From UHGV virus genome UHGV-0130052: a stretch of 12,406 nt of DNA; one strand, written 5' to 3'. Position numbers and translations under genes: made by a program. This stretch comes from a virus. Of the stretch, positions 1 through 12,406 are shown in pieces. The notes beneath the pieces are model-generated. The model did no database searches. It worked only from the letters and a program-made list of their open reading frames with translations, and was not told the DNA's origin. Position 1 is the first letter of the stretch, and each line of letters starts with the position of its first letter.

Positions 1-54
1 AGCAGCGCATTCGTAATGCGAAGGTCGTAGGTTCGACTCCTATTATCGGCACCA
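1..54 (+). tRNA. thrW: tRNA-Thr (anticodon CGU), 3' portion only; the 5' end lies upstream of the window
   Basis: Anticodon loop CATTCGTAATGCG (CGT at 13-15), T-arm GGTTCGACTCC, acceptor 3' strand TATCGGC, discriminator A and encoded CCA ending at 54. Matches the enterobacterial thrW sequence as I recall it; the symbol assumes an enterobacterial-type host. Confidence 0.85.
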
Positions 55-55
55 T
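36..55. repeat. attL core: tRNA 3'-end copy of the 20-bp direct repeat ACTCCTATTATCGGCACCAT
   Basis: Identical 20-mer recurs at 12321-12340 in the same orientation; overlaps the tRNA 3' end as expected for tRNA-targeted site-specific integration. Confidence 0.8.
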
Positions 56-660
56 CAAGAAAATCAATAACTTAGCTTAACTTCTCTAAGAAATTGTATC
101 TTCTGTTATCACTTACAAACGCCTATACGTTGTTATGGGCTTTTGGTAGTTTAACACGTATGGGCGAGTAGTTCCCAGGCTCAACCTCGTAACAAGTTCC
201 TTTGAAGCTGGAAGACGTGCCACCGTCTCTAAACCTTCTACCAAAACTCTTAGCAAGATGTTCCACACCTGGCGCGGTGTCCAATGATGCTACACGTCGT
301 GAGACGTTGCAGAGGATAAACAGGCTAAATGATGGGAAGAGTTTTAAGTGCAATAGTGGATTAAAGCCCACCTCTTCAAAACCTAACTTGATCGGGAAAG
401 AATCAAGCTCTAGCACGGTTTCGTCCACCGGAGTACAACGGGTGCCTGATAAGAGAAGAACTGCTAAGACTTCATAGCTTTTGTGAAAAAGCCCTTTTTA
501 GTGGATACGCCTACGGCGCTTATTTTTTGGTATAACCATCAAAGGCGCTTTATGGCTCCTATTGTCTTGAAAATGTATCTTTACTTGTATTGTGTTTTAT
601 GCGTAGTCTCCCTGTGTAGTATGTAACTTGTTAATTTTCATATGAATACAGAGGCACACG

Positions 661-1356: not shown

Positions 1357-1375
1357 AGGAGGCATTACGCCTCCT
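1357..1375 (-). terminator. Hairpin over the stop codon of the recombinase gene (possible terminator)
   Basis: AGGAGGC-ATTAC-GCCTCCT 7-bp GC-rich stem; downstream on the minus strand is UUGAUAUUUGA, only moderately U-rich. Confidence 0.25.
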
Positions 1376-1904
1376 CTTCTTCCTTCTTGATACGTTGCAC
1401 CGTTGAAGGAGCAACATTAAAGCTCTCGGCGGTTTTACGCACTGACAGGCCATCAGAAAGGGCTTTCTTTATACCTTCTCGATCCACTGCTTTTCCATTA
1501 CCACGTTTTGTAGGATTGACGGCTTGCGCTTCTCGTTTACGTTCTAACATCAGTTCACGTTCACACGTTGCAACTGCCGACAACATCGTAAGCATCATCT
1601 TTCCCATCGCGCTTGTAATGTCTGCAATGATTCCTTCTTTGTGAAATCGAACAATTACACCTCGATTATTAAGTTGTTCAACTAAAGCAAGGATGTCTAA
1701 GGTGTTACGTCCTAAACGGTCGAGAGAGTGCACGTGTAAGGTGTCGCCTTCTCTCAGATAGGCTAAACACGCTTGTAAGCCTGGGCGGTTAGTGTCTTTA
1801 CCAGACAGCTTATCTTCAAAGACTTTATCGAGAGTTACTCCTGCAAGCTGGCGATCAGTGTTCTGATCTACAGTGCTCACACGCTTATAACCGATATTGC
1901 TCAT
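1365..1904 (-). CDS. Serine recombinase, resolvase/invertase family (179 aa) with C-terminal HTH
   Basis: N-terminal GYKRVSTVDQNTDRQ catalytic-serine motif; SLDRLGRN and SAMGKMMLTMLSAVATCERELMLER segments resemble Tn3 TnpR/Hin as I recall them; C-terminal SVRKTAESFNVAPSTVQRI HTH; AAGAGGA Shine-Dalgarno before the start. Confidence 0.9.
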   Translation of the reverse strand: MSNIGYKRVSTVDQNTDRQLAGVTLDKVFEDKLSGKDTNRPGLQACLAYLREGDTLHVHSLDRLGRNTLDILALVEQLNNRGVIVRFHKEGIIADITSAMGKMMLTMLSAVATCERELMLERKREAQAVNPTKRGNGKAVDREGIKKALSDGLSVRKTAESFNVAPSTVQRIKKEEEEA

Positions 1905-1943
1905 AAAATCCTCTTAATGTGTCGATTTGGCACTACTTCAATG

Positions 1944-1979
1944 CAAATGAGTATACCGTATTCATTTGGTCTGTTTCAA
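1944..1979 (-). promoter_or_regulatory. Putative recombinase promoter (-35 TTGAAA, 18-bp spacer, -10 TATACT on minus strand) overlapping an imperfect dyad CAAATGAGTATAC-C-GTATTCATTTG (res site I candidate)
   Basis: Hexamers read directly on the minus strand at 1974-1979 and 1950-1955; the dyad spans 1944-1968 and overlaps the -10. Classic resolvase autoregulatory layout. Confidence 0.45.
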
Positions 1980-2026
1980 GCCTTATGGGTACGGAATATT
2001 ACACGATTTAGCTGTATTCATTTGGT
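1958..2026. repeat. Direct repeat GTATTCATTTGGT x2 (1958-1970, 2014-2026), candidate accessory resolvase subsites
   Basis: Exact 13-mer repeated 56 bp apart immediately upstream of the recombinase gene. Confidence 0.5.
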
Positions 2027-2047
2027 ATGCCTAATGGATACACAGGG

Positions 2048-2477
2048 GGATAGATTAAATGATGTTCTGTTTATACAGGTTTATTTGTTAGATCAACAAT
2101 TTGGCATTTCTAAACAGATGTTTGAACGTTGCCAAATGTCTTGACAACACAAGAAAAGGGCTTGCTATGCCACGCATTACACGAAATAAGGCTGTAAAAA
2201 CAAAATAAATTTTAAAATTTGCACAAACGAGAAAACTCGTTCAGAAACAAGCAGAACAATTTTTAGCCAACAATTTATGATGGTGCTTTGTAAGCCGCAT
2301 TACACAAGGCTTTGCGAAAGTGATGTAAAAGTGAAGAAAGTGAGAATTGCACTTTTAGCTACTTTTTCATTGAATTTTTAGTATGGAATTACACAGGGAA
2401 TAGAGAGCATTATTCTATGATTTACACAGGGAATATAGGGGGATTATGGCACACACATAGAAAGACATTACACAGAG
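2048..2477. repeat. Iteron-like family: TTACACAGGGAATA (2389-2402 and 2422-2435, exact), ATACACAGGGGGATAG (2048-2063), CGCATTACAC (2173-2182, 2296-2305), CATTACACAG (2466-2475)
   Basis: Exact and near-exact direct repeats seen in sequence; two perfect 14-mers are 33 bp apart. A degenerate copy ATTACATAAGGGAAT sits at ~3432-3446. Confidence 0.6.
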
Positions 2478-2520
2478 TGCTATGTGACAAATGGATGTAA
2501 CGGTAGGTCATAGTGAGCTA

Positions 2521-2609
2521 CCCCCACAGAATTCTGTTAATCTTAACTTTTAAAGAGATTTGTACCCTAACAAAATTCTGTTACCCCACCCCCACAGAAT
2601 TCTGTTACC
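2521..2609. repeat. Three ~20-bp iterons each containing a 12-bp palindrome: CCCCCACAGAATTCTGTTA (2521-2540, 2589-2608) and variant CCCTAACAAAATTCTGTTACCCC (2565-2587)
   Basis: ACAGAATTCTGT is a perfect palindrome; copies are direct repeats flanked by C-runs and are immediately followed by an AT-rich tract. Confidence 0.7.
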
Positions 2610-2670
2610 TATTAGATCATTTATTAAATTACTTATTAAATTATAATATTATATATTTATTTATATGATC
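2610..2670. other. AT-rich tract (almost pure A/T), candidate DNA-unwinding element of an origin
   Basis: TATTAGATCATTTATTAAATTACTTATTAAATTATAATATTATATATTTATTTATATGATC directly downstream of the palindromic iterons. Confidence 0.4.
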
Positions 2671-2840
2671 TTTTGCCTTCCGGCGTTAGCTTCACTCTCT
2701 GGCAAGCAGCCTTACTCCGCTACCTTTCGGGCTACGTTGGCTGGCCCGTTCCGCTCACACCGAAAGCAAAGCGTTACTTTCTTCGTGTAACTATCGTTGG
2801 CGGTAACGCCCACGAAGAAATACTATTGCGCTGTGCGCAG
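2671..2840. other. GC-rich, highly self-complementary island in an otherwise AT-rich non-coding region (candidate structured RNA or cis-acting DNA site; strand unknown)
   Basis: Perfect 10-bp stem TTTCTTCGTG (2778-2787) / CACGAAGAAA (2811-2820) enclosing a GGCG-GTAA-CGCC hairpin (2799-2810); CTTTCGG (2724-2730) / CCGAAAG (2760-2766); TGCGC-TGT-GCGCA hairpin (~2827-2839). The overlapping ORF 2673-2951 looks non-coding. Confidence 0.3.
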
Positions 2841-3476
2841 AAGAGTAATCACCTAACCAATCATACTGATTGCTTATGTGTTAACTCTATCTCTCTACTC
2901 TTAATTACCCTCCTACATTTAATAACTCTGTTATTCTCTGTAGTTGTGTAATTGTTTTCGGTGGAAAAGCCAGAGGCGACACCGAAAGAGAATTCTGATC
3001 TTATTAATCTTATCTATCTTAGTTAATCTTCTTACTTATCTTACTTACTTTATCTACTTTATTATTAATAATAGCTTTATAAGCTCTCTGCGTAGCTCTC
3101 TGACGCAAGAAACAGCATTCAGGAAGGGAATCACCTTAGAAAAGTGTTCTTTGCGTCATAATGTGTTTTATGAAGGATTCAGAGGTGTTTCATAACAGGA
3201 ATGTATAGAGGATACTTTAATTAATTAAAAATAAGGGGTCTAAATGCTTCTCTAACAGCATTAAGCAGGGTAGGGAATGGAAACGCATTGCCTACACATA
3301 TAAGCTCACTACAGGGCTTTACAGGGCGTTTTATAAAGTGACTCTCTATCTTATATCTACCATTACCTTTTCATATACCTAACAAATACAAAATAAGCCC
3401 CTTAAATAAGCCTCTGGCGAGCTAAACAGCCATTACATAAGGGAATGTATTGCTTTTATCAAAATCTCGTTATAAC

Positions 3477-3496
3477 GCGTTTTAGAGCGTTTTAGA
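3477..3496. repeat. Tandem direct repeat GCGTTTTAGA x2, candidate operator ~85 bp upstream of the 3581 promoter
   Basis: Exact 10-bp tandem duplication seen in sequence. Confidence 0.5.
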
Positions 3497-3580
3497 CAAT
3501 AATGAAGAATGGCACTACACAGAAGAGCACGAGTTGCTCGTAAGTGCATGAAAAAGATCGATTTTTTTCGGAAGGGGTAT

Positions 3581-3609
3581 TGACAAACGTCTCTTTCTGT
3601 GCAATAATA
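3581..3609 (+). promoter_or_regulatory. Sigma70-like promoter: -35 TTGACA (3581-3586), 17-bp spacer, -10 AATAAT (3604-3609), for the 3733-5986 operon
   Basis: Consensus -35 with optimal spacer; near-consensus -10; ~120 nt upstream of a gene with a strong AGGAGG ribosome-binding site. Confidence 0.5.
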
Positions 3610-3732
3610 GGAATTAGAGGGGACAGGAATAGATTCTTATCCTCTAAATAATTAAACCAATGCACCGCACTTTGAAGCCCAAGGCTTGCAAGGTGTTTTT
3701 TCTTTTAACCAAATAGAATAGGAGGTTAATTA

Positions 3733-3921: not shown

Positions 3922-3943
3922 TAGACAAGAGAAGGAGAAAACT

Positions 3944-4111
3944 ATGAGCGAAACTAAGAAACCAATTCCGCGCACTTACCTACACGTTGACCCTGAAATC
4001 TTCAAGGTTTTATTTGCTGAAGCCAAGAAAAGGCAAATTATGGTCAGTGATTTGATGTTAGAAATCATTACTGAAGCAGCAGAGAACATCAAACAAAAAA
4101 AGGGTAAGTGA
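3944..4111 (+). CDS. Putative ribbon-helix-helix (CopG/Arc-like) DNA-binding protein (55 aa)
   Basis: AGGAG 6 nt upstream of ATG 3944 (internal start of track ORF 3878-4111); N-terminal basic strand RTYLHV followed by two predicted helices, typical RHH layout. Judged by eye. Confidence 0.5.
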   Translation: MSETKKPIPRTYLHVDPEIFKVLFAEAKKRQIMVSDLMLEIITEAAENIKQKKGK

Positions 4112-4162
4112 TCCTCATTCACTTTAGTAGCGCATTAAGCGTGATTTATAAGGAGATTTTTA

Positions 4163-4816
4163 ATGATTAATGAAGAACAATTTGTAAAAGTTCCTATGTG
4201 GATTCTAAAAATAAGCCAAGTAAACGGGCATAAATTTACAGATAGTGCTAAAAACCTTTACTGCTATCTGAAAGGGTTTGATCGTGCATTTCCCTCTTAC
4301 GCTAAGATAGGCGATGTTTTTGGCATAACACCAAGAGCAGCAGAGGAAAGGGTTAAGAAATTGCTCGAAATGGGATTAATTATAAAAGATGCACGACCAG
4401 GAAGTTCTAATGTCTATCAAGTGGTAGATATTCCACAAGAAGAAGCTAGACAAGAAGCCAAGACACAACAAGAAGCTACTGTTAAAGCTGTTCCTGATCA
4501 GCTTCCGCCTACGGAAGATAATAAACAGCCTTCTTTTGATGTTCTTGATGATTGGGATACGCCTTTACCGTGGGAGACGGAAGAAACACCTGTTTCATCA
4601 AGTGAAAAGGTAGCTAATGATAATGAGGAGGATGTGTTAGAAAATTTTGCCTCTCTTATTATCAAGCAGAAGAATACCAGAACAGCAGGGGCATCATTTA
4701 TAGAATTTGCAAATTCACTAGCTTATAGACACGGGCTAAAACGACCAAATGGTATTGAGGCATATTTTGCTAAGAAACATCCCAAAGTATACGAAGACTT
4801 TGATATTCCATTTTAA
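4163..4816 (+). CDS. Putative replication initiator/replisome-organiser-like protein: N-terminal winged-HTH, acidic C-terminal region (217 aa)
   Basis: AAGGAG Shine-Dalgarno; N-terminal segment (YAKIGDVFGITPRAAEERVKKLLEMGLI) has the look of phage/plasmid initiator wHTH domains; acidic DDWDTPLPWETEETP stretch. Function is inferred, not demonstrated. Confidence 0.45.
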   Translation: MINEEQFVKVPMWILKISQVNGHKFTDSAKNLYCYLKGFDRAFPSYAKIGDVFGITPRAAEERVKKLLEMGLIIKDARPGSSNVYQVVDIPQEEARQEAKTQQEATVKAVPDQLPPTEDNKQPSFDVLDDWDTPLPWETEETPVSSSEKVANDNEEDVLENFASLIIKQKNTRTAGASFIEFANSLAYRHGLKRPNGIEAYFAKKHPKVYEDFDIPF

Positions 4817-6908: not shown

Positions 6909-7937
6909 ATGATTCTAGGTAATGATTACGTTGATTTGATCCCTCTGTTCCAGACACACAGCACGCGTAACTTCCTGCTCTCTACCCTTGATTTTACGGA
7001 TTCTGTAGGGGTTACATCTCATAAAGTAGCTGTTTCACAGCTTGTCGAAAGCAACGAATCTCTGTTCAACAAAGAAACCTCTCGTTTCTCTTCTGAACAC
7101 AACGTTACTAAGCGAGAACAAGGTAAAGAATGGCTGATTGAAATCCCTTACTTCCTACGTGAAGATGTGATCCGTCCTTCTGATGTTCAAGGCAAGCGTA
7201 AACCTGGCACTGATTTCCAGGAAACACTCACTGATATTTATGCTGAGTATGTTGCTAAACATCACGTAGCGTATCAGCGTACAAAAGAGAGCGTGTTGGC
7301 GGCTTCTTTGTTCTCTGGCAAAACTTACACGCCTAAAACTGATGATGTTCTTATCGAGTGGGGCAAGCTGTTTAACGTATCAGCTATGAAAGCCACTGTG
7401 AACGCTTCCAGCACTGACACCACGAAGATTTTTAAAGAATTTGATCAGATTGCTACTGACATTATCGAAAAAGCACAAAGCCAGGCGGCTGCTGTAGAGC
7501 GTATTGTTGTTTTCTGTAAGCCGGAAGCCTTCTCTGCAATTCGATTCTCTGCGGGTATGGCAAACGCATTCCAGTATGTAAGCCCACTGGAAGAAGGGAA
7601 CGTTGTGTATCAGCGTCGTGACCTGCTACCAGGAGTGACAGCGTTCACTATTCCAGGAACTAACATTGATGTTGTTAAACTGGTAGATCCGCTACACCTG
7701 GCACATATGACCGCAGACGCTGTAGCTGTGCCTAAATTCTCTAAGGGTAGCGGAATTTATACCAATATCTTCGGGGCTGCTTCCAGCACCTTTGAACTGA
7801 TTAATGCCGCTCCTGCTGAGGTGTATAGCTATAGCTATGAATCTTCTCGTGGTGATGCTGTTAACGTTGTTACAGAGAATAGCCAGATGGTTGTAAACCA
7901 CGGTGTAGGCTTCTCCGTTCAAATCACTGTTAAATAA
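6909..7937 (+). CDS. Putative major capsid protein, lambda gpE-like family (342 aa)
   Basis: Length close to lambda gpE (341 aa). Local similarities to gpE as I recall it: RIVVFCKPEAFSAIRFS vs IIVFDPKGWALFRSF, LFSGKTYTPKTDD vs VLKGKYTMTGE, C-terminal FSVQI vs VSVQLA, N-terminal DLIPLFQ vs FDPLFLR. Followed by a strong terminator. Not verified by search. Confidence 0.55.
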   Translation: MILGNDYVDLIPLFQTHSTRNFLLSTLDFTDSVGVTSHKVAVSQLVESNESLFNKETSRFSSEHNVTKREQGKEWLIEIPYFLREDVIRPSDVQGKRKPGTDFQETLTDIYAEYVAKHHVAYQRTKESVLAASLFSGKTYTPKTDDVLIEWGKLFNVSAMKATVNASSTDTTKIFKEFDQIATDIIEKAQSQAAAVERIVVFCKPEAFSAIRFSAGMANAFQYVSPLEEGNVVYQRRDLLPGVTAFTIPGTNIDVVKLVDPLHLAHMTADAVAVPKFSKGSGIYTNIFGAASSTFELINAAPAEVYSYSYESSRGDAVNVVTENSQMVVNHGVGFSVQITVK

Positions 7938-8242: not shown

Positions 8243-10084
8243 ATGTTAGAAATTAACACTTCTAAAATTAAGAACACAGTAACATTTAGTGTAGATAAAG
8301 ACAGCTTGAAAAAAGCGAAAGACTCTATTACAGGCTTAAAGGAATTCGCAGAAAATATCAAGCCAGCTAAATTGAGATTTGATAATGTCACTAAAGGCTA
8401 TAAGAAAGCACAAAGTGAAGTAGACAAGATTACTCAACAGAAAGCTAAAACAGAAAAACAGAATCAAAGAGCACAAGCTGCCGCAGCAAGAGCACAGGCA
8501 AGGCAACAGGCACAAATAGCAGCACGTAAAGAGAAAGCAGAATTAAAACTTCTCGATGTGTCAAGCTCTATCAGTGCAATGCACCGCCTCTCTGTAGCGG
8601 AACAATACAAAGCTATTGCACAGGCTAGAGAGATAGCAAAACAATATGAGCAAGGGGCTATCTCGCTTGCACGTATGAATAGCCAGATGAAACGCCTACA
8701 ACAACAACAACGTAAGATTAATGGCAACAGAAAAACTCAATTAGCCCCCGTTAAGGGAGGATCAGGGAATTCCGCCACTATGGGCGCTCTGTTATTTGGA
8801 GGCGCTACGGCTGCTGCTGGCGTGATGGCTGTTAGCAAAGCGGCGGAGTTTGTTAGTAGCAGTTTCGCTAACGCAGAGACCCAAGGGGAGCTAATCCAAC
8901 GTGCCAAGCTGGGCGGTGTAGACGTTAACCAGATGTATAATATTACAGAATGGGCCTATAGACACGGGATCGATAGCCTCCAGGGAGATCAAGGGGCTAG
9001 GAAATACCTGGATCAGATGAAAGATGTTAGGGAACGTGCCGCAAAATCCTACAGTGAAGCTGAATTGGTGAAAGACAAGAAAACCGGAAAATCTGAATGG
9101 AAAGGCGGTGATAACGCTATTAATGAACTTCTAAACATCGGTGTTATTAACAAAAGCGACCTTAAAAAATTTGCTGATAATCCAGCCGGATTAATTTCTA
9201 AGGCTGTTAATGGAATGATGAAAAAAGGGTTTTCAGACTCCCAAATTGGACAACGTTTAGAAGACCTGGGCGATGATTTGATGCTTACATCAAAATATTG
9301 GCAACGTTCCGTTAAAGATGTACAAGAAAGTATTAATCAGCAAAAAGCCTCTGGAAAATGGCTAACAGAAACACAGCAAGAATCTATTGTTAAATTCAGA
9401 GAACTAAACAGACAGCTTTCACAGCTTTCTGATGCAAGACAAGTAGCATTTGTAGACGGCTTTATGAAATCTCTCGATCCAAAAGTAACGGAAGAGTTTA
9501 TGAAAAACCTTTCTAATCTCACTCCGTATTTTACGAAGCTGGGTGAAGCCGCAGGAAGTCTTTTTGACGCCATTATGAAGATTGTAAACTGGTTTAATCG
9601 TAATGATGATAAGACAGATGCTATTCAGAAAAATATGGGTGATGCACCGCCACTATCTAACGATGGAATGAAACAGAATCTTTCTAACCTCGTTCCTGAT
9701 AAATATAAAGGCGCTGGCACTGCAACAACTACACCTGATAATAGTCATTCCCTCTTTAACACAATTAAGGGATTGCTTTTCGATGATAAGTCTTCTGTGT
9801 CAGATGTAAAAATGTCAGTCAGCGAAGCACCGATAACCAATCTCAAACAGGGTGCTTTAAATAATCTTGCAATGACAACTCCGGCTTATAATTTATCTCC
9901 TGTGTTTAATCTGAATCCTACATTTGAAGTGGTAACAGAGGTTCCGCTTACTATTAATTCTGACACATCCAGATTAAGCGATTATGTGGATTTTACAGCG
10001 AGAGCAAGTCGGGATAGCTTCTTGAAATCATTAACATTAACCAGCTTGTCAGGACAATCCAACGGCGGGGAATTCCCGCCATAA
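8243..10084 (+). CDS. Large hypothetical protein (613 aa): N-terminal coiled-coil-like region rich in Q/A/K/R, Gly/Ala-rich hydrophobic segment, large C-terminal domain; tape-measure-like or scaffold-like
   Basis: AAGGGGA 6 nt upstream of ATG; residues ~60-170 are helical and low complexity (QRAQAAAARAQARQQAQIAARKEKAELKLL); hydrophobic TMGALLFGGATAAAGVMAV; no catalytic motif recognised. Confidence 0.6.
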   Translation: MLEINTSKIKNTVTFSVDKDSLKKAKDSITGLKEFAENIKPAKLRFDNVTKGYKKAQSEVDKITQQKAKTEKQNQRAQAAAARAQARQQAQIAARKEKAELKLLDVSSSISAMHRLSVAEQYKAIAQAREIAKQYEQGAISLARMNSQMKRLQQQQRKINGNRKTQLAPVKGGSGNSATMGALLFGGATAAAGVMAVSKAAEFVSSSFANAETQGELIQRAKLGGVDVNQMYNITEWAYRHGIDSLQGDQGARKYLDQMKDVRERAAKSYSEAELVKDKKTGKSEWKGGDNAINELLNIGVINKSDLKKFADNPAGLISKAVNGMMKKGFSDSQIGQRLEDLGDDLMLTSKYWQRSVKDVQESINQQKASGKWLTETQQESIVKFRELNRQLSQLSDARQVAFVDGFMKSLDPKVTEEFMKNLSNLTPYFTKLGEAAGSLFDAIMKIVNWFNRNDDKTDAIQKNMGDAPPLSNDGMKQNLSNLVPDKYKGAGTATTTPDNSHSLFNTIKGLLFDDKSSVSDVKMSVSEAPITNLKQGALNNLAMTTPAYNLSPVFNLNPTFEVVTEVPLTINSDTSRLSDYVDFTARASRDSFLKSLTLTSLSGQSNGGEFPP

Positions 10085-10105: not shown

Positions 10106-10819
10106 ATGGCGACCGCCGGGATTTTAACCATACGATCAGCAAACTCCCCAGAACAACACGTTCAGGCTGTTTACAAAGCAGAACAAGATATAAACTCTAC
10201 AAAAAACACAAATAACTCTGCCTCTACTGTGAAAGGAGAGAATGGATTTGCTATTGTTACCAGTGGCTTGGCATCTTCTGGTAATGACGTTTATGAAAAT
10301 TATATGGCACTGGCCTTTGACAGTGTTGACGATGTGAACGTGAGACGTTCGGCAGATGTCACAAGCTACCCCGTAGAGAATGGTGCTACTGTGTCTGATC
10401 ACGTTCAAATTAAAAACAATAAGTTTTCTCTTAAAGGGCGTATCTCTGAAACACCGATTAAAAGCGATCCTGGCTTGTTAAAGAGTGCAGGGGTGAACGG
10501 GAACAGAAGATCATTAGCTATCGACTACCTGAATCAGATTATGGACAGTAGACAGCCTTTTCTTCTTGTTACAGAAAATAAAACTTTTGAGAACGTTGTT
10601 TTAACAGGCATCGAATACACAGAAGAGGCAAGCGAATCCCTGGTATTTGATCTTAGCTTTGAACAAATCAGATTAGTTTCTTATGGCACTGTAAACACTG
10701 TAGCTATCAAAACACAGCCATCTAAGAACATAGGGGCTAATATGAAAAAACGTGTTAACACTGAAAAAGCAAGTAGTGAAGGTGAAGACACTATTACTCC
10801 TGCCTTTAAACAGGAATAG
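10106..10819 (+). CDS. Hypothetical protein (237 aa), composition suggests beta-rich; possible virion or accessory protein
   Basis: AAGGA upstream of ATG; last gene of the operon, convergent with the integrase; no motif recognised. Confidence 0.55.
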   Translation: MATAGILTIRSANSPEQHVQAVYKAEQDINSTKNTNNSASTVKGENGFAIVTSGLASSGNDVYENYMALAFDSVDDVNVRRSADVTSYPVENGATVSDHVQIKNNKFSLKGRISETPIKSDPGLLKSAGVNGNRRSLAIDYLNQIMDSRQPFLLVTENKTFENVVLTGIEYTEEASESLVFDLSFEQIRLVSYGTVNTVAIKTQPSKNIGANMKKRVNTEKASSEGEDTITPAFKQE

Positions 10820-10860
10820 CCGTAAATGCCTCTAAAACGCTCTGTAACGATGTAATTATA

Positions 10861-10893
10861 AAAGAGGCTACCAATCTATGTTGAAGCCTCTTT
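10861..10893. terminator. Candidate bidirectional terminator between the convergent 10106-10819 gene and the integrase
   Basis: Perfect 9-bp stem AAAGAGGCT / AGCCTCTTT with A-run on one side and T-run on the other; the 15-nt loop is long, which lowers confidence. Confidence 0.45.
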
Positions 10894-10900
10894 ATTGCGT

Positions 10901-12265
10901 CTATGGTGTTGTTTTACGCCTTAAATTTGATTTTTTATTGATTGATAAGCCTTTCTCTATTTCAGGGTAGCGTAGAAGCTCAATATATTTTTTAAGCTCT
11001 ACTGGAGAAGCTGCATTCTTGCTATATGTGCGGAATGTCTCTGTATTGCCGCGTGTATGGCCCAGGAGAAGGGCGATCCTGTCTTCTGGAATTTGATTTC
11101 GATCAAGAAGCTGTGCTACTCCGTGTCTCAGAGAATGAAACACCTTCCTTTCTGTTCCCTTTTCCCCTAAAGCCTTTCGTTTAGCTCTTGTAAATCTCTG
11201 CGTGTGCCACGTAGAGCGTTTACCATCTACACGCTCTGTAATGCTGGCGTGATAGAACAAAAAGCCATTATGAGGCTTTTCACGCAGCGACAACACCAAC
11301 GGAGTGATAAGGCTGTGTACAGGCACAACACGTGCCGCAGCTTTCGTTTTTCCCTGTGTGATTTCAAAACACAGCACACCTTCGATCTCTTTCACATCGT
11401 CTATTGTGAGACTTGCTATCTCATTGATCCGCATACCTGTATATAAACCGATAAGACACAAAGCCATCATTTCTTTGTTTTCTGCTGAATTACCGGAAAA
11501 TACTTGCAACACCTGCAATAGCTCTTTGTTAGAAAATGCCTCGTAGCTCTCTCTACTTTGTGCCACATCAAGCCTATGCCCTCGCCAGGGGGAGAGCGCC
11601 CTTTCTGGCGCATCGTGGTAACGTGATGAAGCTAACTCCCATAGCTGGGCCATTGGGCTGATATAATTTGCAATTGATTGTTGTGAAAGGGTTTTTTGCA
11701 TGTGTTCAATCCAGCCTGTAACAGTGGTGCGGCTTACATCTTGCAATGCAATATCAGGCTTTTTACGGTAGGAGAGAAACATCTCTACCGCTTTTCTTGC
11801 CTTAGCTAAAGTGGCTGGCTTCTTCTTCGTGCTGTTAATTGTCAGGTAGATTTCAAGAATTTTAAGCAATGACGGACACGAAGACGCTGTATCTTGCATT
11901 CTGGTAGCTGTTTTGGCGTATTTAGCCTTACTGCGTAACAGCTCCAGCGTGTTCTCTATTGTGCTGTTTACAGGGGCGACACTCTCCCGTAGACAATGGT
12001 ATTCATCTGCAATCTGATCACGCTTTCTACGTGCAACACGAAGATTACTTGTGTGCAGACTCCTGACAAACGTCCTTTTTCCTTCAAAAAAGGGCTGCAT
12101 ATACACAGGCAACGTGATCCTCAAATAGTAGTTACCGTAAGAATCACAGATTATGTATTGATTGGGCTTGTATCTCATAAACTCCCCGGCTAAAGTGTCG
12201 GAGCGTTTGTAATGTGAAAATTGATTGTGACGCATAGAAAATGATGATTTTTCTATAAGATTCAA
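10901..12265 (-). CDS. int: Tyrosine site-specific integrase (454 aa)
   Basis: C-terminal catalytic-domain motifs HSLRHGVAQLL and LLGHTRGNTETFRTY (His/Arg/Tyr signature); start lies ~55 bp from the right-hand att repeat and the gene reads away from it. The ribosome-binding site is weak, so the exact start is uncertain. Confidence 0.9.
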   Translation of the reverse strand: MNLIEKSSFSMRHNQFSHYKRSDTLAGEFMRYKPNQYIICDSYGNYYLRITLPVYMQPFFEGKRTFVRSLHTSNLRVARRKRDQIADEYHCLRESVAPVNSTIENTLELLRSKAKYAKTATRMQDTASSCPSLLKILEIYLTINSTKKKPATLAKARKAVEMFLSYRKKPDIALQDVSRTTVTGWIEHMQKTLSQQSIANYISPMAQLWELASSRYHDAPERALSPWRGHRLDVAQSRESYEAFSNKELLQVLQVFSGNSAENKEMMALCLIGLYTGMRINEIASLTIDDVKEIEGVLCFEITQGKTKAAARVVPVHSLITPLVLSLREKPHNGFLFYHASITERVDGKRSTWHTQRFTRAKRKALGEKGTERKVFHSLRHGVAQLLDRNQIPEDRIALLLGHTRGNTETFRTYSKNAASPVELKKYIELLRYPEIEKGLSINKKSNLRRKTTP

Positions 12266-12320
12266 TCAATTAGTAATGGTCGTAGGTGATGGCATTAACA
12301 CGAGATTAATCGAGTGTTTT

Positions 12321-12340
12321 ACTCCTATTATCGGCACCAT
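12321..12340. repeat. attR core: second copy of the 20-bp direct repeat (duplicated tRNA 3' end)
   Basis: ACTCCTATTATCGGCACCAT identical to 36-55; not preceded by the rest of a tRNA, so it is a partial tRNA copy marking the element boundary. Confidence 0.8.
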
Positions 12341-12406
12341 TAAAATCAAAGAGTTACCCCATATTTAAATACACCACGTTTCCTCCTGTGCCGTATTTGT
12401 GCCATT

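Follow-up and report, generated by a model that had tools for sequence, protein, structure and literature searches.

The 12,406-nucleotide virus genome UHGV-0130052, called the window below and numbered along the strand given, holds an integrative element of Escherichia coli that carries on its minus strand a gene for a small serine recombinase. Judged from its sequence, this gene most likely codes for an active small serine resolvase of the Tn3/gamma-delta type, and directly upstream of it lies a putative recombination region (res) with three subsites between positions 1919 and 2041. We suggest, with a probability of roughly 0.6, that the resolvase acts at this res to resolve multimers of the excised and replicating element and that it represses its own gene. 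A first-pass annotation of the window had proposed that the resolvase stands alone and has a res-like site in front of its gene, and both the layout of the three subsites and the corresponding loci of homologous recombinases bear this out.

The recombinase

1365–1904, minus strand: serine recombinase (resolvase-type), 179 amino acids, open reading frame with a match to Pfam PF00239

The open reading frame had been recognised correctly in the first-pass annotation, as it matches the Pfam family Resolvase (PF00239) with an E-value of 7.5e-34 and 117 bits (cut-off 23.3). The protein is similar over nearly its full length to gamma-delta resolvase (E 4e-29), Tn3 resolvase (4.5e-28), and the invertase Gin (4e-26). 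The alignment to gamma-delta resolvase extends to residue 175 of 179 and so covers the region of the C-terminal helix–turn–helix domain, for which the Pfam families HTH_7, HTH_38, and HTH_23 give matches that all remain under their curated cut-offs. No NCBIfam model matches the recombinase above its cut-off, and PHROGs labels the family as “DNA invertase” (phrog_125), a label which is a catch-all. Resolvases and invertases are thus not separable by similarity scores, and therefore the DNA sites must decide between them.

All catalytic residues are present, namely Y6, R8, the nucleophile S10, D31, R40, D54, D62, R63, R66, E121, and R122, which align with Y6, R8, S10, D36, R45, D59, D67, R68, R71, E124, and R125 of gamma-delta resolvase, and they are kept in 24 relatives. 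Among close alleles of the recombinase the ratio pN/pS is between 0.03 and 0.11, which argues that the gene is maintained by purifying selection. Five residues of gamma-delta resolvase after position 20 are missing in the whole clade to which the recombinase belongs.

Structure of the putative res region

The subsites are listed here without strand, together with the promoter-like match and the imperfect dyad that the first-pass annotation had described:

2014–2041: putative res site I (crossover), GTATTCATTTGGT-AT-GCCTAATGGATAC, a dyad of 13 + 2 + 13 bp
1958–1992: putative res site II (accessory), GTATTCATTTGGT, 9-bp spacer, GCCTTATGGGTAC
1919–1954: putative res site III (accessory, weaker), GTGTCGATTTGGC at 1919–1931, 10-bp spacer, TGCAAATGAGTAT at 1942–1954
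1950–1979, minus strand: promoter-like match for the recombinase gene, −35 TTGAAA at 1979–1974, 18-nucleotide spacer, −10 TATACT at 1955–1950, 10 of 12 positions matching
1944–1968: imperfect dyad of the first-pass annotation, junction at which site III (right half) and site II (left half) abut with their outer ends

Together the half-sites extend over 123 bp, leaving 15 bp to the ATG of the recombinase gene. In site I two inverted half-sites of 13 bp agree in 10 of 13 positions around a central AT (2027–2028), and the distance from its centre to the ATG downstream is 123 bp. The half-sites of site II are of the same two types, left and right, as those of site I, and the spacer between them is longer by 7 bp. 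A linker of 21 bp separates both sites, and their centres are 52.5 bp apart, corresponding to five helical turns.

A matrix was built from the half-sites and used to scan the whole window, and a scan with the full site was added. The four best half-site matches of the window are all found within 1958–2041, where they form two dyads with a common left type GTATTCATTTGGT and a common right type GCCTWATGGRTAC. The two half-sites of site II score 18.4 and 17.5 bits, as compared to 11.7 bits for the next match outside the region. The 13-bp direct repeat noticed in the first-pass annotation is indeed exact: the 13-mer GTATTCATTTGGT has only two copies, at 1958–1970 and 2014–2026, which are 56 bp apart. 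Neither scan detected a second crossover site in the window. A site of the Xer/cer type, which could provide an alternative resolution function, was found neither in the window nor in one relative that lacks the recombinase.

The imperfect dyad CAAATGAGTATACCGTATTCATTTG at 1944–1968 is present as described, occurring once in the window with none expected in shuffled sequences. Nevertheless, it is not the res-like unit for which it had been taken, as its two arms belong to different subsites, the left arm to site III (right half) and the right arm to site II (left half). Its left arm is absent from the element with the divergent allele described below, and its centre (1953–1957) comprises the most variable positions among close alleles. 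The placement of res upstream of the gene proved right, but the interval 1365–2030 proposed for gene and site cuts through site I. In the fragment 1940–2030, suggested there for a resolution assay, sites I and III are both incomplete, and resolution with it would probably not succeed.

The −35 hexamer of the promoter-like match is located within the spacer of site II, and the −10 hexamer overlaps the right half of site III. Because sites II and III overlap both hexamers, bound resolvase would probably repress its own gene.

Conservation and co-variation of the sites

Site I is invariant in seven close alleles, and the stretch 1958–2047 is invariant as well except for one base in site II. The synonymous divergence in the recombinase gene is 8–15% among close alleles, and the res region is thus more conserved than the synonymous sites of the gene. 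Related elements at other tRNA genes code for a recombinase with 63% identity at the same position. At the aligned place the element with this divergent allele contains a different 28-bp dyad, GTGGTGATTTAGC-CT-GCTTTATCACTAC, instead of site I, and it also has accessory half-sites of its own dyad type. For the left half of site III (1919–1931), the alignment with the divergent allele shows a corresponding half-site.

The same layout is found across the family. Among 50 homologue loci, 25 have their best dyad of the 13-2-13 form 105–150 bp upstream of the ATG, where about 20% would be expected (binomial p 1.6e-6). In these 25 loci the stretch between dyad and gene contains 66 copies of the locus' own half-sites as compared to 12 copies in a stretch of equal length on the other side of the dyad; when half-sites are swapped in from other loci, 20.7 copies are found. 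Some of the 25 loci are closely related, and collapsing the four alleles of the window type and the two loci of the divergent allele gives about 21 of 46.

DNA inversion

It could be argued that the recombinase is an invertase of the Hin/Gin type that flips a segment of the element, for example the 1.36 kb from 639–651 to 2012–2024, with the recombinase gene inside. The PHROGs label would agree with this explanation, as would the similarity to Gin, which is nearly as strong as the one to gamma-delta resolvase, and the mirror-image copies of two short motifs at 607–651 and 2012–2050. The left of these copies, however, contains no dyad, the spacing of its two motifs differs by 6 bp, and a second full crossover site was not found in the window. 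In addition, none of 5,426 complete E. coli genomes covers at least 80% of the modelled inverted junction (one or the other half is found in 559), the full-length relatives are all collinear, and the allele is present at full length in a single aligned piece in 156 of 156 genomes. Moreover, accessory half-sites on the gene side of site I are characteristic of resolvases. With no inverted partner site, no inverted form in these genomes, and collinear relatives, we rejected an invertase switch and regard it as very improbable. This agrees with the first-pass annotation, which had taken the protein for a resolvase and not for an invertase with inverted crossover sites flanking a segment.

The mirror-image motifs at 607–651 and 2012–2050 consist of a TACACAGGGRGA motif and a res half-site, and the left copy is located upstream of a conserved open reading frame of 50 amino acids (661–813). 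This left copy may serve as a promoter or as a binding site of another kind.

Transposon remnants and the contexts of relatives

The module might also be a remnant with no present function in the element, derived from a transposon of the Tn3 family or from an ancestral plasmid. Transposon resolvases are the closest solved relatives of the recombinase, many related elements are devoid of the module, and truncated copies (P0005, P0006, and P0041) are present in the protein database. Against such an origin without function stand the strong purifying selection on the recombinase gene, the conservation of the res region beyond that of synonymous sites, and the divergent elements at other tRNA genes, where the 63%-identical allele with its co-varied sites occupies the same position. 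Furthermore, no open reading frame of the window has a transposase domain, as the first-pass annotation had stated for a Tn3-type transposase, and no long transposase open reading frame (a DDE protein of about 1000 amino acids) is found near the recombinase. Terminal inverted repeats that bracket the module, which in Tn3-family transposons measure about 38 bp, were not found, and a comparison of the flanks 800–1370 and 2042–3730 with 72,556 plasmids gave no transposon-like matches. As transposase and terminal inverted repeats are both missing, the module is not part of a transposon. A transposon remnant was therefore rejected, again in line with the first-pass annotation, and we consider a functionless leftover of either origin quite unlikely.

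No similarity to the module was found in 50,697 phage records. In Klebsiella, circular plasmids with a Rep gene and no transposase, about 5.7 and 10.2 kb in size, encode relatives of the recombinase with 54–58% identity. A Stutzerimonas island some 9 kb long (loci L094–L096, 1445–10543) codes at its far end for a recombinase of 57% identity, and one further relative is located in a Rahnella locus together with a homologue of the capsid protein. These contexts argue that the module travels with small replicons and satellite-like islands and not with transposons. The Stutzerimonas island also codes for a large serine integrase, a VapE/DUF5906 primase-like protein, and a protein with a tape-measure domain, and it parallels the arrangement in E. 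coli with a different type of integrase. Another related element (locus L128; NZ_CP126938.1, 28000–50000) carries the divergent recombinase allele and three IS3 insertions and is located next to sopAB on a 166-kb conjugative IncF plasmid of avian pathogenic E. coli.

The element

The window comprises a complete integrative element of about 12.3 kb whose ends are marked by a 28-nucleotide direct repeat. Its further features are:

31–58, plus strand: attL, 3′ end of tRNA-Thr, direct repeat, marks the element end
12316–12343, plus strand: attR, copy of the 3′ end of tRNA-Thr, 89% identical to 31–58
2520–2607, plus strand: iteron-like direct repeats ACCCCCACAGAATTCTGTTA, three copies with 0.01 expected
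4163–4816, plus strand: replication initiator, O-like, with an N-terminal winged helix–turn–helix (PHROGs phrog_270, 2.6e-10, and phrog_391, 6.7e-08; weak match to Pfam HTH_36)
6909–7937: major capsid protein, lambda-E-type (domain/family match)
8243–10084: tape-measure protein, 613 amino acids, longest open reading frame of the window (family match)
10106–10819: Dit-like tail protein (family match)
10901–12265, minus strand: tyrosine integrase (Pfam Phage_integrase, 1.5e-17, DUF6538, and Phage_int_SAM_5)

The only Rfam match across the window is a tRNA at 1–51. In annotated E. coli genomes the same element is found at the tRNA-Thr gene adjoining proA, and 229 of the 5,426 complete genomes hold at least 80% of the window. 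One strain that carries the module with a 100% match is E. coli 2013C-3342. Relatives of the element are located at tRNA-Gly and tRNA-Leu. The combination of a tyrosine integrase and a serine resolvase within 12 kb, to which the first-pass annotation had drawn attention, was confirmed.

Two families that PHROGs describes as replication initiation families (phrog_270 and phrog_391) match the O-like protein. Between 2042 and 3730 there is a stretch of 1.7 kb without an annotated gene, at least part of which is present in 727 E. coli genomes and which is probably an origin or a regulatory region. The iterons at 2520–2607 are adjoined by an AT-rich stretch (2605–2670), and their copy number differs from element to element; we regard iterons and AT-rich block together as a candidate replication origin within this non-coding stretch. 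Motifs of the TACACAGGG type recur at 2039, 2390, and 2424, within or next to it.

With its own genes for a capsid, a tape-measure, and a Dit-like protein the element looks, from its gene content, like a phage satellite. Neither portal nor terminase was detected among the open reading frames of the window, several of which have no match to any family. A description of a satellite type matching the element was not found in the searchable literature. Two short stretches (3932–4516 and 10137–10265) are 89–98% identical to virulent coliphages of about 146–151 kb, among them Mt1B1_P17, muut, inny, and several rV5-like phages; the beginnings of the genes for the O-like initiator and the Dit-like protein fall within these stretches. 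These phages are candidates for a helper or for a gene donor.

The whole block of replication and structural genes, 7.3 kb in length, is enclosed by an inverted repeat of 42 nucleotides (3453–3494 and 10823–10864) whose arms are 74% complementary, with a core of 19 nucleotides at 89%. The left arm contains GCGTTTTAGA twice in tandem and is unrelated to the res half-sites. No inverted form of the block between these repeats is found among the collinear relatives.

An open reading frame on the minus strand at 880–1038 codes for a hydrophobic protein of 52 amino acids and is preceded by a promoter-like match (10 of 12 positions, 1147–1119). At its position an open reading frame of the same size is annotated in the element of O104:H4. 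The protein may be a small membrane toxin. The defence-system models of PADLOC match neither the recombinase nor the small neighbouring open reading frames, including this one.

Proposed role of the resolution system

The set of proteins and sites in the element might give a hint how the resolution system is used. We suggest that the tyrosine integrase would excise the element and that the resulting circle would replicate from the iteron region with the help of the O-like initiator; with initiator and iterons both present, a replicating episome is plausible. Dimers or higher multimers arising from such a circle would carry two or more res copies in direct orientation, from which the resolvase would yield monomers. 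Strand exchange is expected to take place at site I, at the central AT (2027–2028). Further dimers of the resolvase bound at sites II and III would help to form a synaptic complex that restricts the reaction to direct sites on one molecule, and resolvase bound at these two sites would also repress its own gene. In the integrated state the element would be present in a single copy with no partner site, and no reaction would occur.

Several observations weigh against this proposal. In Tn3 resolvase the residues R2, R32, K54, and E56 form the R (2-3′) interface, which holds the synaptosome together (bioRxiv 10.1101/2021.12.07.471667); they align with S2, K27, Y49, and R51 in the recombinase of the element. 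As the residues of this interface are not conserved, any synaptosome must use different contacts, and the sequence comparison indicates that the recombinase is not a close functional copy of Tn3 resolvase. Of the half-sites of site III, the left one (GTGTCGATTTGGC) is with 11.4 bits on a par with the best background matches, and the degenerate right one (TGCAAATGAGTAT) with 5.8 bits is not significant alone. A dyad with 10 of 13 agreeing positions is not rare either, as the window contains eight and shuffled sequences 2.3; the case therefore rests on the repeats, on the co-variation, and on the family-wide position and not on dyad symmetry. The near-consensus promoter of the first-pass annotation exists as a match in 10 of 12 positions, but its −10 hexamer is not conserved and reads TATACT, TGTACT, or TACACT among the alleles, which makes the assignment tentative. 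Since a promoter scan found five promoter-like sites in the region and 10.6 in shuffled sequences, and since the −10 hexamer differs, the match adds little to the case. The attP junction, which excision of the element would leave on the circle, was not found when two patterns were searched in metagenome contigs and one in viral contigs. Finally, the module is optional: elements of the O26/O111 type exist without it and have no Xer-type site in its place.

The R-interface residues of Tn3 resolvase, which correspond to positions 2, 27, 49, and 51, are not conserved in the recombinase clade. Matches to the recombinase and to the capsid protein in IMG/VR seem to be integrated copies, judged by their UViG identifiers, and thus do not show packaging.

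There is also a small chance that resolvase and res are functional and have been selected for another role than to monomerise a replicating element. Among such roles, which share this small chance, are the resolution of tandem or cointegrated satellites, a function mainly as a repressor bound beside the origin region, or that of a hot spot for recombination where the cargo region borders on its neighbour and modules are exchanged. The module is indeed located exactly between the conserved non-coding region and a variable cargo region (812–1341) in which close relatives already differ, it is optional among related elements, and elements without the recombinase lose their similarity to the window at about position 2032, that is, inside site I. 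In the elements of the O26/O111 type about 800 nucleotides of unrelated sequence, which hold an unannotated open reading frame of 127 amino acids, replace 812–2031:

L003 3184–4000 and L004 3192–4000: swap-zone replacement stretches, O26/O111-type counterpart of 812–2031

The breakpoint at about 2032, however, is one shared event and not several independent ones, the replacement sequence contains no hybrid site, and the similarity boundary of the divergent allele is found near 2200, away from site I. The breakpoint was therefore set aside as proof of a res-mediated exchange. In addition, Tn3-type resolution systems that were tested on plasmids and on SGI1 resolve multimers (PMC12217951), and we prefer multimer resolution of the excised element as the role of the module.

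The stretch 812–2031, between the small open reading frame at the left end and the non-coding region, can be described as a swap zone. On its left side, other relatives carry genes of the Abi, DUF262, or HNH type.

Comparison with known resolution systems

In Tn3, three subsites make up a res of about 120 bp in front of the gene, with a distance of about five turns between sites I and II (PMC12217951). For Tn3 the linker between these sites is published as 22 bp and the spacer difference as 6 bp. The system of the element is similar in most respects: the protein has about 180 amino acids with an N-terminal catalytic and a C-terminal helix–turn–helix domain and can be aligned over its full length, and the res of about 120 bp is located directly upstream of the gene and overlaps the promoter region. 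The crossover dyad of 28 bp with its central AT is likewise distal, the putative accessory sites with longer spacers are proximal to the gene, and the linker of 21 bp again places the centres of sites I and II about five helical turns apart. In contrast to Tn3 and gamma-delta, the element has neither a transposase nor terminal inverted repeats, its site III is weakly defined and spans about 36 bp and not 25 bp, and the protein differs in the residues S2, K27, Y49, and R51 at the R interface and in the five residues missing after position 20.

In SGI1 a resolution system consisting of the resolvase gene S027 and res rapidly removes multimers of the island by means of a Tn3-like resolvase (PMC12217951). 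A tyrosine integrase and a serine resolvase on one helper-dependent island are thus already known from SGI1 (PMC12217951). Both SGI1 and the element of the window are integrative islands with a tyrosine integrase, their own replication module, and a res of three subsites (putative ones in the element) upstream of the resolvase gene, and SGI1 is helper-dependent, as the element appears to be. The helper of SGI1 is an IncA or IncC conjugative plasmid, whereas the genes for capsid, tape-measure, and Dit-like proteins in the element point to a phage helper. The likeness concerns the layout of the modules and the role, which for the element is a predicted one.

The resolvases of small plasmids, such as the relatives with 54–58% identity on the Klebsiella plasmids, are expected to have the same role in multimer resolution. 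The element is in contrast normally chromosomal, and the function would be needed only after excision. The invertases Hin, Gin, Cin, and Pin belong to the same superfamily, have the same size, and also have a recombination dyad upstream of the gene, but the element lacks an inverted partner site and possesses accessory half-sites. The closest mechanism is therefore the resolution by Tn3 and gamma-delta, and the closest biological analogue is SGI1.

Specialists would recognise the module as a textbook resolution system with an unsurprising mechanism, and the host element may be more interesting than the module itself. In papers on satellites resolvases are barely mentioned, with a passing note in one of them (PMC10111431) and none in another (PMC10085698).

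Implications for the element family

A dedicated function for multimer resolution argues that the island of 12.3 kb spends time as a replicating circle, and such a stage fits the O-like initiator and the iterons. The corrected coordinates of res (1919–2041) enable a clean resolution assay, and the module offers a handle on whether multimer control affects the transfer of satellites, as has been found for SGI1. It is conceivable, if rather doubtful at present, that resolvase and res serve a function in the life cycle of these elements, which would then form an undescribed family of phage satellites in E. coli with their own capsid, tape-measure, and distal-tail proteins and with short stretches nearly identical to virulent coliphages of about 146–151 kb. 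If this is true, members with the resolvase could persist as stable multicopy episomes or would need monomerisation for efficient transfer, and members without the recombinase would follow another strategy, for example, the tolerance of multimers that has been reported for SGI1.

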